In this document: piece by piece, positions 51,147 through 54,100 of the stretch | Numbering within the stretch: position 1 is the first letter of the stretch | Layout: every line of letters begins with the position of its first letter | DNA from: Myxococcota bacterium | Lineage (GTDB): Bacteria; Myxococcota_A; UBA9160; SZUA-336 | Direction of reading: 5' to 3' | Assembly (NCBI GenBank): GCA_035498875.1 | Contig: DATJZP010000052.1 | Coordinates: 21,823 to 85,822 of the forward strand | DNA: 64,000 bases | Program-made: the position numbers

Positions 51147-54100
51147 CCAGAGCCGCGGCCGCGAGATCATGGAGCTCCTCACCGAGCTGAATCGCGACCA
51201 GGGACTCACGATCGTGATCGTGACTCACGACACGCACCTGGCGCGCTGGACCAAGCGCGCGATCCGCTTCCTCGACGGCCGGATCGTGCAGGGCGACTCC
51301 GAGGAGGCCGCCTGATGCTGTGGTCGATGGTGCGGCTCGCGCTCGTGGCCATCCGGCGCAACGTGCTGCGCTCGTCGCTCACGGTGCTGGGCATCGTGAT
51401 CGGCGTCGCCGCCGTGATCACCATGACCACGATCGGCGCCGGCGCCACGGCCAAAGTGACTGCCGACATCGCCAGCCTGGGCACCAACCTGCTGATGGTG
51501 CGCCCCGGCCAGGGCCAGGGGCCGGGCGGCGCCCGCTCCGACGCGCCGCCGTTCAAGATCGTGGACGCCGAGGCGATCCAGCGCGAGATCTACGGCGTGG
51601 CCGCGGTCGCGCCGATCTCGCAGAAAGTCGCGCAGGCGATCTCGGCCAGCCACAACTGGTCGACCACCGTGAACGGTGCCACGTCGCAGTTCCTGATCGT
51701 GCGCAACTGGGAGCTCGCGAGCGGCCGCGCCTTCACCGACGGCGAGGAGCGCGCGGGCAAAGCGCTGTGCGTGCTGGGCCAGACCGTGCGCCGCGAGCTG
51801 TTCGGCGCGGCCGACCCGGTGGGTCAGCGCATGCGGCTGGGCAAGCTCACCTGCCAGGTGATCGGGCTGCTCTCGCCCAAGGGTGAGTCGAGCTTCGGTC
51901 AGGACCAGGACGACGTGGTGCTGGTGCCGCTGCGCTGGCTGCAGCGCACGCTCGCGGGCAATACCGACGTGGGGGTGATCTTCGTGTCGGCGCGCGACGA
52001 CGTCGAGACCCAGAAGGTGCAGGCCGATCTCGAGCGCCTGTTCCGCGAGCGCCGCCACAGCCCCACCGGCGAGGACGACTTCTCGATCCGCGACATGAAG
52101 GAGATCGCGACCGCGCTCACCGCGACCACCAAGGTCATGACCTCGCTGCTCGGCGCGGTCGCCGCGGTGAGTCTCCTGGTCGGCGGGATCGGCATCATGA
52201 ACATCATGCTGGTCTCGGTCACCGAGCGAACGCGCGAGATCGGCATCCGGCTCGCGATCGGAGCGCTCGAGCACGAGGTGCTGACCCAGTTCCTGGTCGA
52301 GGCGGTGGTGCTGTCGTCGGTGGGCGGGGTCGTGGGCATCGTGCTGGGCCTGCTCGCCGCGTTCGCGGGCACGCACGCGATCGGCGCCCCGTTCGTGTTC
52401 CAGCCCACGATCGTGGTCATGGCGTTCGTGTTCTCGGCCGCGGTCGGCGTGATCTTCGGCTTCTTCCCCGCGCGCCAGGCCGCGCGGCTCGATCCAATCG
52501 AGGCGCTGCGCCACGAGTGACCCGCGCGGCCGGGTCACTCGCGCGCGGCGCTAGAGATGCTCGGCCAGCGTCGCGATCTCGACCAGCGGCAGCCCCCAGT
52601 AGAGCGCGAAGCGCTCGAGCTCGGCCGGACCCGACATCACGCCGTCGGGCGACATGATCTCGCAGCACACGCCCACCGGAGCGAGCTTCGCGGCGCGGCA
52701 CAGCGCCACCGTGGCCTCGGTGTGACCCGCGCGCTCGCGCAGACCGCCGGCGCGCGCGGAGAGCGGAAACACGTGGCCCGGCCGCAGGAAGTCTTCGGGC
52801 CGGGCCGCGGGATCGGCGAGCTTGCGCACGGTGGCGGCGCGCTCGGCGGCCGAGACACCGCTGCCGCTCGCCGCCGCCAGGTCCACCGGCGTGTGCATGG
52901 CCGTGCCGTGGCGGTCGCCCGCGCCCGCGAGCGGCGCGATCTCGAGCCGGTCGAGCAGCGCCCGATCGCAGGGCACGGTGGTATGACCGCAGGCCTCGGT
53001 CAAGAGGAACGCGAACGTCTGCGGGCGCAGGCTCGCGCCCGCTGCGATCACGTCGCCCTCGCCTTCCCGCGCCGGGTCGTAGACCACCACGCAGCCTCCG
53101 GCCGCGATCTGCGCCACGATCTTCTCGACGCCGAGCCGACCGCTGACCCAGCCCTTCCACGGCATCGAGGCGACCACGCGCGTCAGCGCCGAGCGCGTGC
53201 GGCCCTCGTAGCGCGCGGCCAGCCGCTCGAGCAGGTCGCCCTCGAGGTTCACGCGCGCGCCGGTCGCCAGCGTACCGAGCGTGGTCTGCGCGATCGTGAC
53301 CGGCACCAGCGCCACCGCGAAGCGGTCGCGCTGCACGTCCGCGACGGTGAGACTCACGCCGTCGACGGTGACCGAGCCCTTGGGCACGAGTGACTCGAGG
53401 AAGCGCGCCGGCGGACGCAGCCAGAGGCGCCGTCCGCTCGCCTCCTCGTCCACGCGCAACACCTTGGCGATCGCGTCGACGTGGCCCTGCACCAGGTGAC
53501 CCTCGATCGCCTCGCCGATCCGCACCGGCGTCTCCACGTTGACGAGCGCCCCGACGCCGAGCTCCGCCAAGGTCGAGCGGCGCACCGTCTCGCTCGAGAG
53601 CTCGACTCCGAACGTGTCGCCTTCGAGCGCGATCGCCGAGACACAGACTCCGGCGACCGATACGGAGCCGCCCGGCTCGAGCTCCGCGCACGCCTTGGGC
53701 GCGCGCACGGACAGCCCGCCCGCGCCCGACGCCACGACCTGACCCACTTCACGAATGAACCCGCGGTACATGAGTGACCTCCTTCGAGTGTTTGGAAGAA
53801 GGGAGGACGTCCTCGGTCCTCGCTGCGGGGTCTCACCGCGTGGCTCCGGAATCGCACCGGATCACCCGCCGCGGCGCGGCGGGCCGGCGGGCCGTCGCCG
53901 CCGCACCTGGAATTGCACCGGCCGCGAGTATAACTCGCGCGCCCGGCGCGCTGCTCACCAGGCTCGACCCACCGCCTCGGAGAGGAACCGCATCAACGGC
54001 ACCGTCTCGCGGCAGGCCGCGGCGTAGCGCCGCGCGAAGCCGGGCTTCGAGGCGTCCGCCTCGCGGAAGGGCCGAGACACCACGTACTGCTTGCGCTCGA

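Follow-up and report, generated by a model that had tools for sequence, protein, structure and literature searches.

We analysed a stretch of 64,000 nucleotides (nt) of DNA from a Myxococcota bacterium (GenBank assembly GCA_035498875.1, contig DATJZP010000052.1, positions 21,823 to 85,822), referred to here as the window, in which a minus-strand gene fuses riboflavin synthase (RibE) to 3,4-dihydroxy-2-butanone 4-phosphate (DHBP) synthase (RibB). The gap ahead of this gene, between the stop of a DUF2461 gene (53955) and the ATG at 53771, is a leader of 183 nt on the minus strand, which an earlier note on this sequence had taken to contain a flavin mononucleotide (FMN) riboswitch. The aptamer-like sequence that it pointed to is homologous to the FMN aptamer, but in helices P2 to P6 only. 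We think it rather probable that the element represents a distinct 5′-terminal subclass of the FMN fold, lacking P1 and acting as a translational riboswitch for RibE-RibB. The gene and the element are placed as follows.

52551..53771, minus strand: RibE::RibB fusion gene, assigned with Pfam, 406 amino acids, ATG at 53771
53825..53919, minus strand: conserved aptamer-like core of 95 nt, homologous to FMN P2-P6, without P1 and the junction strands J1/2 and J6/1

The open reading frame (ORF) of the fusion holds two Lum_binding domains (125.7 bits) followed by a full-length DHBP_synthase domain (191.9 bits, profile coverage 1-190 of 191), so the RibE::RibB fusion described in the earlier note is real. 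Its orthologues, of 403-415 amino acids, carry the same two Pfam families. The architecture had been called uncommon, whereas the family is far from rare: the matches listed form more than 120 clusters at 90% identity, and it is abundant in metagenomes and also present in cultured Nonomuraea and Actinomadura. Like RibBA and RibDG, the protein combines two riboflavin-pathway activities in one polypeptide, but here one partner, riboflavin synthase, catalyses the last step, and the other, DHBP synthase, opens the four-carbon branch. Hosts of both fusion and element are uncultured Myxococcota and, in the Actinomycetota, Nonomuraea spp., Actinomadura parmotrematis, and metagenome-assembled genomes of Streptosporangiaceae and Trebonia. 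The fusion gene is monocistronic in the window, where the downstream MacB/FtsX gene is convergent.

Relatives were sampled protein-first, from relatives of the fusion in GTDB genomes and public assemblies, and RNA-first, by scanning metagenomes for a DNA pattern that was anchored at two places, P3 and P5, and otherwise unconstrained. All 19 metagenome matches found RNA-first lie directly upstream of a start reading MYRGF..., and each complete ORF downstream of the RNA (22/22) is a fusion of 403-409 amino acids. A covariance model, R1, was built from 32 distinct leaders; it gave exactly one match per fusion locus (82-148 bits) at 37/37 loci from Myxococcota and Actinomycetota, cited below by three-digit L numbers where needed. 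The window copy scores 128.9 bits, with an E-value of about 1e-27. No convincing further copy was found with R1 in the window or the flanks, the next best match in the window reaching 12.8 bits (E = 0.42). At all 37 loci sampled, the element stands directly upstream of the RibE-RibB fusion, a flavin biosynthesis gene.

The core consists of five hairpins or helices and the strands that join them:

53909..53919, minus strand: P2 hairpin GG-UGCAAUU-CC at the probable 5′ end of the RNA, with a loop of FMN L2 consensus
53903..53908, minus strand: J2/3, AGGUGC, purine-rich and longer than canonical J2/3
53886..53902, minus strand: P3 hairpin GGCGG-CGACGGC-CCGCC, 100% of cells paired
53885, minus strand: J3/4, a G in 29/31 sequences
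53864..53884, minus strand: P4, variable in length and sequence, with 6/6 counted pairs changing on both sides
53863..53862, minus strand: J4/5, GA, the A invariant and the G present in 27/31
53845..53861, minus strand: P5 hairpin UCCGG-UGCGAUU-CCGGA, 99% of cells paired, with a loop of FMN L5 consensus
53840..53844, minus strand: J5/6, GCCAC, where the canonical strand is gCCGAC, so that one purine of G84/A85 is missing
53825..53839, minus strand: P6 hairpin GCGG-UGAGACC-CCGC, with an invariant stem that RNAalifold recovers

The motif strings listed in the earlier note are all present on the minus strand, namely GGTGCAATTCC at 53919..53909, GGCGG at 53902..53898, the P4-P5-P6 string from about 53869 to 53817, and GAGGACGTCCTCCC at 53814..53801. 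Across an alignment of 37 sequences, 93.7% of cells are in standard pairs and 14 of 29 pairs (67 cells) change on both sides, a result that none of 500 shuffles and no slid control came close to. Two-sided change was seen in 6/6 pairs of P4, 4/6 of P7 (a hairpin that follows P6), 2/3 of P2, 1/5 of P3 and 1/5 of P5; for P6 the count is 0/4, and as its stem is invariant this helix says nothing on covariation. P2 shows one GC-to-CG swap, with a third pair that varies between UA and CG. P3 has one compensatory GC-to-AU change (L031) and one G-U pair (L033), and a UA-to-CG swap occurs in P5 of five sequences. The alignment used for these pair counts was fitted to the model, and RNAalifold on an unfitted MAFFT alignment served as the check. 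From the plain alignment, RNAalifold recovered P2-P6 and, in addition, paired GGU of J2/3 with GCC of J5/6 in a closing helix, the equivalent of the long-range pairs in the FMN model.

The unpaired strands hardly vary. GGUG of J2/3 is found in 30-31 of 31 distinct sequences; in J5/6, GCC is invariant, A is present in 28/31 and the last base is C or U. By contrast, no conservation is seen in the bases immediately before P2 or in the linker that follows P6. The structure is thus shared by orthologous leaders (37 loci, covarying helices), where the earlier note had proposed to look for it. Tertiary pairings were also checked by eye (a helix of J2/3 GUG with J5/6 CAC, loop-tract pseudoknots, and GCGG of the P7 loop against P6), and none was consistent across lineages.

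The earlier note had staked its FMN riboswitch on a cmsearch score at the gathering threshold of the Rfam family RF00050, and here the proposal fails: the leader scores 14.5 bits (E = 0.61, in a permissive scan of 351 nt), and the gathering score is 66.2. A gathering-threshold Rfam scan of the 64-kb window reached no family, and none of seven further loci reaches the gathering score of RF00050, with values elsewhere of 21.9 bits (L007) and 25 bits (L040). Of the Rfam families, RF00050 matches the leader best, and its alignment runs from end to end, with the P2 loop, P3, P5 and P6 close to the FMN consensus, and with J1/2 (aGGGCa) and J6/1 (GGAUGggAGA) deleted. Other Rfam families gave only noise on the leaders (mir-2071, H19_2, Guanidine-II at 23.8 of 32 bits, and similar), and Rfam 15 contains no family for the element. 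Judged by its sequence, the element is a relative of the FMN riboswitch and not a member of RF00050 as defined.

Nonomuraea gerenzanensis (NZ_LT559118.1) holds both kinds of element, and so the low Rfam score is not an artefact of GC content or lineage. Its canonical FMN riboswitch (RF00050, 98.8 bits; P1, J1/2 and J6/1 intact) precedes a complete ribD-ribE-pnuX/ribM-ribBA-ribH operon. The variant (L040) lies 4.5 Mb away, upstream of a fusion gene that is an extra copy beside the standard ribE and ribBA. R1 gives the variant 106.1 bits and the canonical element only 47.3, while the 25-bit match of RF00050 to the variant is local and spans model positions 17-121, exactly P2 to P6. The variant and the canonical FMN riboswitch are therefore homologous yet distinct, and coexist in one genome. 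The accession is an 11.85-Mb PLSDB record with 10 annotated features, labelled ‘plasmid I’; as it carries the complete rib operon and tRNA genes, it is evidently a chromosome, and the label is no evidence of mobility. In a DNA search of the plasmid collection, the element was found only in this record, with no sign of carriage on true plasmids.

In the canonical aptamer, FMN stacks between A48 and A85 and hydrogen bonds A99, with its ribityl-phosphate held by G10, G11, G32, G62 and G84 (PMC6298564), and it bridges a coaxial stack of P1 on P6 (PMC7573352). We mapped these contact positions through the RF00050 alignment:

G32 and G62: retained in the element
A48: G in the element (J3/4 is G in 29/31, against canonical GA)
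G84/A85: one of the pair lost (CCGAC to CCAC)
G10 and G11 (J1/2): no counterpart, the bases 5′ of P2 being unconserved and probably upstream of +1
G98 and A99 (J6/1, GGAUGGGAGA; A99 reads the flavin edge): no counterpart, deleted in the RF00050 alignment

Of the eight canonical FMN contacts, then, G10, G11 and A99 are absent, only one purine remains of the pair G84/A85, and A48 has become G. P2-P6, the L2/L6 and L3/L5 loop motifs, G32 and G62 are all present, including in a three-way alignment with the canonical element; J1/2 (G10, G11) and J6/1 (G98, A99) are not. What follows P6 is an unconserved linker of 1-6 nt in Myxococcota and a pyrimidine-rich CnnCUCUC in Actinomycetota.

P1 is absent as well. 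The helix proposed for it in the earlier note, CTCGC (53928..53924) with GCGAG (53823..53819), is at chance level, with 46% of shuffled flanks giving an equal or longer helix. When 32 nt of 5′ flank were searched for pairing with the segment that follows P6, a helix better than shuffles at the 0.05 level was found in 0/32 leaders, and the best candidate lands at a different position and distance in each of the 32; no helix closing a six-helix junction emerged. The CTCGC strand instead overlaps a promoter-like motif:

53927..53932, minus strand: putative sigma-70-type -10 box, TATACT, which places +1 at about 53919/53920

In 29/32 leaders there is a box of the form TAnnnT whose end lies 5-10 nt (mode 6-7) before the first G of P2, against a background of 0.00057 per position (binomial P about 1e-66). 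Its first, second and sixth positions are fixed, whereas positions 3-5 are free to vary; GTG precedes the box in 17/29, and at Actinomycetota loci this TAnnnT box is present with the same spacing. On account of the fixed positions and the fixed spacing, we read TAnnnT as a -10 hexamer, whose position would set the start of the transcript, probably, on or next to the first base of P2. The fixed distance between box and P2 further suggests that the exact 5′ end of the RNA matters, and this end could lie where J1/2 sits in the canonical aptamer.

TAnnnT could alternatively be part of the RNA, with transcription starting further upstream (for example by read-through from DUF2461) and the 5′ region joining the fold. 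A same-strand upstream gene does end 22 nt before the box in the window and in several relatives, the -35 is weak, and a promoter scan was negative. We consider this quite improbable. The box is constant at positions 1, 2 and 6 only, which is how a -10 hexamer behaves, and the sequence separating it from P2 is unconserved. Its presence and spacing are maintained although the upstream neighbours differ completely, and the 32 leaders yielded no conserved pairing partner for the 5′ flank.

A separate observation concerns the DNA upstream of the box. Four Myxococcota loci without the DUF2461 neighbour (L012 at ~95-125, L014, L025 and L030) have a near-perfect inverted repeat of 26 bp, for example GATAGTTAACTACCACGTGAACTATC, about 20-45 nt upstream of the -10 box in a divergent intergenic region that adjoins a glyoxalase-family gene and then an ArsR-type helix-turn-helix gene. 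The repeat looks operator-like, and could place the same promoter under protein-level control as well.

The absence of P1 also bears on whether the element is an ordinary FMN riboswitch, with a six-helix aptamer closed by P1 (CUCGC/GCGAG), a poor score owing to GC content or divergence, and repression of translation by FMN. RF00050 is the top Rfam match and aligns globally, the context is a riboflavin-biosynthesis gene, and sequestration of the Shine-Dalgarno (SD) sequence is predicted, all as this explanation would have it. It is nevertheless very improbable: the score of 14.5 bits falls short of 66.2, a genome just as rich in GC holds a canonical element of 98.8 bits beside a variant of 25 bits, P1 is conserved in 0/32 leaders with its supposed 5′ strand overlapping the -10 box, and J1/2 and J6/1 are absent.

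Downstream of P6, the leader contains an expression platform that ends at the ribosome-binding site (RBS):

53803..53821, minus strand: P7 hairpin GAGGAC-CGAGGAC-GUCCUC, with GAGGAC 53821..53816 paired to GUCCUC 53808..53803, separated from P6 by a 3-nt linker
53778..53802, minus strand: predicted SD-sequestering hairpin, with CCUUCUUC 53802..53795 paired to GAAGGAGG 53785..53778
53778..53784, minus strand: Shine-Dalgarno AAGGAGG, read from the sequence, 6 nt upstream of the ATG

The earlier note had suggested translational control, which is plausible given that the SD is predicted to be sequestered, although the details differ. Its hairpin sequence, GAGGACGTCCTC, leaves no loop and cannot self-fold, the actual hairpin being GAGGAC with GUCCUC; CCTCC had been named as the partner of the SD, while the predicted fold pairs the SD mainly with CCUUCUUC. 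AAGGAGG is present (53784..53778), but 6 nt and not 8 nt from the ATG. A scan of the window for intrinsic terminators returned none, which makes transcription attenuation unlikely.

In the minimum-energy fold, the SD is mostly or wholly paired (3-5 of its 4-5 nt) in 32/32 platforms. The probability of an unpaired SD is 0.02-0.03 for the window and below 0.05 in 20/32 full-length ensembles. Anti-SD and SD covary across lineages (CCUCCG/CGGAGG, CUCCUCCU/AGGAGGAG and CCACCUCUC/GAGAGGUGG). P7, whose 5′ strand mimics the SD and whose 3′ strand is anti-SD-like, takes the forms GAGGAC/GUCCUC, GAGAAc../..cUUCUC and GGGCCC/GGGCCC, with 4/6 pairs changing on both sides. When P7 is enforced, the cost of opening the SD falls by more than 1 kcal/mol in 16/33 leaders and rises that much in none; when its 5′ strand is blocked, the cost goes up in 20/33. 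In these folding models, P7 thus acts as an anti-sequestor in the Myxococcota design.

Three layouts were found. In the first, found in most leaders and in the window, P7 lies next to the sequestor and the two can form together. In the second (L004, L022, L024, L029 and most GAGAAC-type leaders), the 3′ strand of P7 is the anti-SD and the two structures are mutually exclusive. The third, actinobacterial layout runs P6, CnnCUCUC, a covarying P7 and CUGAC, and here it is the strand adjacent to P6 that pairs with the RBS, as CCACCUCUCGG:CUGAGAGGUGG (11 bp, p = 0.002) and CCAUCUCU:AGGGAUGG (8 bp, p = 0.03). The CUGAC motif was also considered as a hammerhead core, which we take to be CUGANGA, and did not fit. 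A convincing ON state, with the SD open, was not found for any treatment modelled (full-length ensembles, the aptamer as a separate domain, and P7 enforced or blocked).

Taken together, the element is very likely an RNA descended from the FMN aptamer that regulates translation of the fusion in cis. Because a conserved aptamer is joined to rebuilt platforms, as is typical of riboswitches, the arrangement is riboswitch-like. The invariant junctions, the rebuilt platforms, the coexistence with a canonical FMN switch and the precedent for pocket changes (PMC6298564) together make it likely that the element senses a small molecule through a remodelled pocket. It might instead be a relic of the FMN aptamer that senses no metabolite and serves as a constitutive translational attenuator, an RNA-stability element, or a protein or small-RNA site. 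The SD is predicted to be sequestered in every modelled state with no alternative conformer found, and several canonical ligand contacts are lost, as might be expected of such a relic. Decay should, however, strike the junctions first, and the unpaired junctions hardly vary between the two phyla, in contrast to the freely drifting flank and linker beside them; in addition, the aptamer has been kept while the platform was rebuilt in at least three ways, which is a signature of ligand-sensing riboswitches. A relic is, on balance, improbable.

Our preferred reading, the P1-less translational riboswitch, would work as follows. A descendant of the FMN aptamer would have kept the peripheral P2-P6 and their loops and lost P1, J1/2 and J6/1, and would be transcribed from its own promoter, starting at the first nucleotide of P2. 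The near-invariant J2/3 GGUGC, J3/4 G, J4/5 GA and J5/6 GCCAC have the pattern expected of a remodelled ligand pocket. The platform in Myxococcota would be the hairpin P7, an SD mimic paired to an anti-SD strand, followed by a pyrimidine tract that pairs with the SD; in Actinomycetota, the P6-adjacent strand would itself be the anti-SD. The ligand would be flavin-related and recognised otherwise than FMN. As most of the phosphate-binding guanines and A99 are gone, a reasonable guess from the sequence is an unphosphorylated compound (riboflavin, 6,7-dimethyl-8-ribityllumazine, 5-amino-6-ribitylaminouracil or lumichrome). With regard to polarity, we lean slightly towards a default-OFF switch whose ligand would turn translation ON, because most modelled ensembles contain no SD-open conformer and because P7 opposes sequestration.

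Several observations weigh against this reading. Single-sequence folding energies do not differ from those of shuffled sequences (z = +0.42 for the aptamer and -0.66 for the leader, at 73% GC), and as these scores are uninformative, the evidence for structure is comparative and not thermodynamic. No variation is seen in P6 or in most pairs of P2, P3 and P5, so that covariation rests mainly on P4 and P7, with a few events elsewhere, and many of the 37 sequences are closely related, so the cell counts exceed the number of independent events. The -35 region is weak, with 3.07 of 6 matches where random positions give 2.37, and a consensus promoter scan of the window returned no promoter. Against the lean to ON in particular, the P6-adjacent helix is an anti-sequestor in Myxococcota and the sequestor itself in Actinomycetota, and P7 and the sequestor can coexist in most Myxococcota leaders. 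To our knowledge, moreover, the characterised FMN-family elements on riboflavin-synthesis genes are all OFF switches.

FMN-dependent repression is a serious alternative for the polarity. In its full form, a P1-less aptamer would still sense FMN or riboflavin through the remodelled pocket and repress the gene, being new in architecture but not in ligand or logic. By holding the post-P6 strand, or by stabilising a helix that stacks on P6, the ligand would bring about pairing of the anti-SD with the SD. The FMN-family elements known from rib genes all act as feedback OFF switches (PMC6298564), G32, G62 and purines at the stacking positions are kept, the actinobacterial strand that pairs with the RBS is adjacent to P6 where P1 stacks in the canonical fold (PMC7573352), and blocking the 5′ strand of P7 strengthens SD sequestration in 20/33 leaders. 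We nonetheless judge this form rather unlikely, since A99, G10 and G11 have no counterpart, G84/A85 is reduced to one purine and G stands in place of A48; a ligand-free, SD-open conformer is not predicted in most of the 32 ensembles; and there is no evident reason to maintain a second, constrained FMN sensor beside a canonical switch.

A bolder version of the P1-less riboswitch, which we put forward only tentatively, is a new class in which the 5′ end and the enlarged J2/3 would replace J1/2 and J6/1, an unphosphorylated pathway compound would be sensed and RibE-RibB turned ON, and element, promoter and gene would move together between Myxococcota and Actinomycetota. The RibE-RibB module would then dismutate lumazine and supply DHBP to recycle the by-product.

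Compared with the FMN riboswitch (RFN element, RF00050), the element has P2, P3, P4, P5 and P6 in equal order, loops that resemble the consensus (L2, UGCAAUU; L5, UGCGAUU; L3 and L6), and G32, J4/5 GA and the long-range closing pairs of J2/3 with J5/6. Both are found in 5′ leaders of riboflavin-biosynthesis genes and come with a platform that sequesters the SD. It differs in lacking P1, J1/2 (G10, G11) and J6/1 (G98, A99), in a J5/6 that is one purine shorter, in J3/4 G against GA, in a J2/3 enlarged to an invariant (A)GGUGC, and in a P3 closed by an extra G-C pair. The RNA probably begins at P2, a hairpin or anti-SD strand takes the place of the 3′ strand of P1, and the score is 14-25 bits against a gathering score of 66.2.

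Translational platforms with competition between anti-SD and anti-anti-SD strands are known from FMN-ribB in Proteobacteria and from the thiM thiamine pyrophosphate riboswitch. There too, a pyrimidine-rich anti-SD has two possible partners, the SD and an SD-like purine strand that directly follows the aptamer. In those systems, however, the aptamer-proximal strand is shared with P1; the element has no P1, and secondary structure does not reveal how aptamer and platform are coupled.

The closest published relatives are the FMN variants of subtypes 1 and 2 (Atilho, Perkins & Breaker, RNA 2019), in which guanines that bind the ribityl-phosphate are altered and FMN is rejected; subtype 2 binds unphosphorylated flavin derivatives such as lumichrome (PMC6298564). 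These variants keep six stems including P1, carry point substitutions that are mostly G to A, and lie mostly upstream of transporter or efflux genes (PMC6298564). They set a precedent for a change of ligand specificity by remodelling of the FMN-fold pocket (PMC6298564), but the present element has the features of neither subtype: P1 and whole junction strands are deleted, and its sole associated gene is the biosynthetic RibE-RibB fusion. Within the searchable full-text literature, which leaves most subscription journals outside, searches that also covered permuted or truncated FMN aptamers, the fusion protein and the taxa concerned turned up no description of a P1-less or second flavin-sensing class, or of the leader of the fusion.

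The FMN riboswitch is among the most widespread and best-studied riboswitch classes, and is an antibiotic target. If our reading is correct, a natural derivative without several of the ligand contacts and without P1, through which the canonical switch signals, would show how this large fold can be rewired while its junctions stay invariant in two phyla, and flavin metabolism would probably gain a new ligand or a new mode of signalling; should the ligand differ, the element could prove to be a new riboswitch class. It is missed by Rfam-based pipelines and marks a large, unstudied family of RibE-RibB enzymes. The hypothesis is directly testable because the element occurs in cultured strains, among them N. 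gerenzanensis, whose canonical FMN riboswitch in the same genome provides a built-in control. Genetic tools for this species have been published (PMC6985074).

The genes around the fusion differ from locus to locus. Upstream neighbours include DUF2461, a glyoxalase-family gene, AraC/DJ-1, tRNAs, a sigma factor and others, so that promoter, RNA and gene behave as one self-contained unit. In the window, the DUF2461 (TIGR02453-like) gene (53955-54854, minus strand) shares the strand of the -10 box and stops 22 nt short of it; the gene has an equivalent place in L001, L003-L005, L015, L016, L019-L021 and L027, and is conserved in the subclade of the window but not outside it. On the other side, an ABC ATPase gene and a MacB/FtsX-type permease gene (50548-52520, plus strand) are convergent with the fusion, and a MacB/FtsX gene likewise adjoins the fusion in L039. 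In N. gerenzanensis, four tRNA genes (Gly, Cys, Gly, Val; L040 2732-3103) lie about 730 nt upstream of the element. Clusters of tRNA genes are common integration sites. ARAGORN called the aptamer itself (L040 3827-3918) a 92-nt ‘tRNA-Cys (aca)’, which we rejected as a false positive.

In three divergent lineages, a gene for an S-adenosylmethionine (SAM)-dependent methyltransferase (Methyltransf_11/23/25) lies directly 3′ of the fusion; these genes, and the flavoenzyme and glyoxalase neighbours, are found at the following places.

L031 1455-2240, L037 6291-7031 (= L038 1392-2132) and L044 3745-4842: SAM-dependent methyltransferase
L034/L035: two DJ-1/PfpI genes and a glyoxalase
L030: glyoxalase
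L044-L046 and L037: flavin-dependent oxidoreductases; nadA-nadB-nadC with NrtR

In L031 and L044, the methyltransferase gene overlaps the stop codon of the fusion, which suggests translational coupling, and its position next to the fusion might point to a modified flavin or lumazine product. Glyoxalase/DJ-1-type and flavoenzyme genes recur beside the fusion in unrelated loci, possibly by coincidence; the glyoxalases are worth noting because 5-amino-6-ribitylaminouracil, an intermediate of the pathway, reacts with glyoxal and methylglyoxal.

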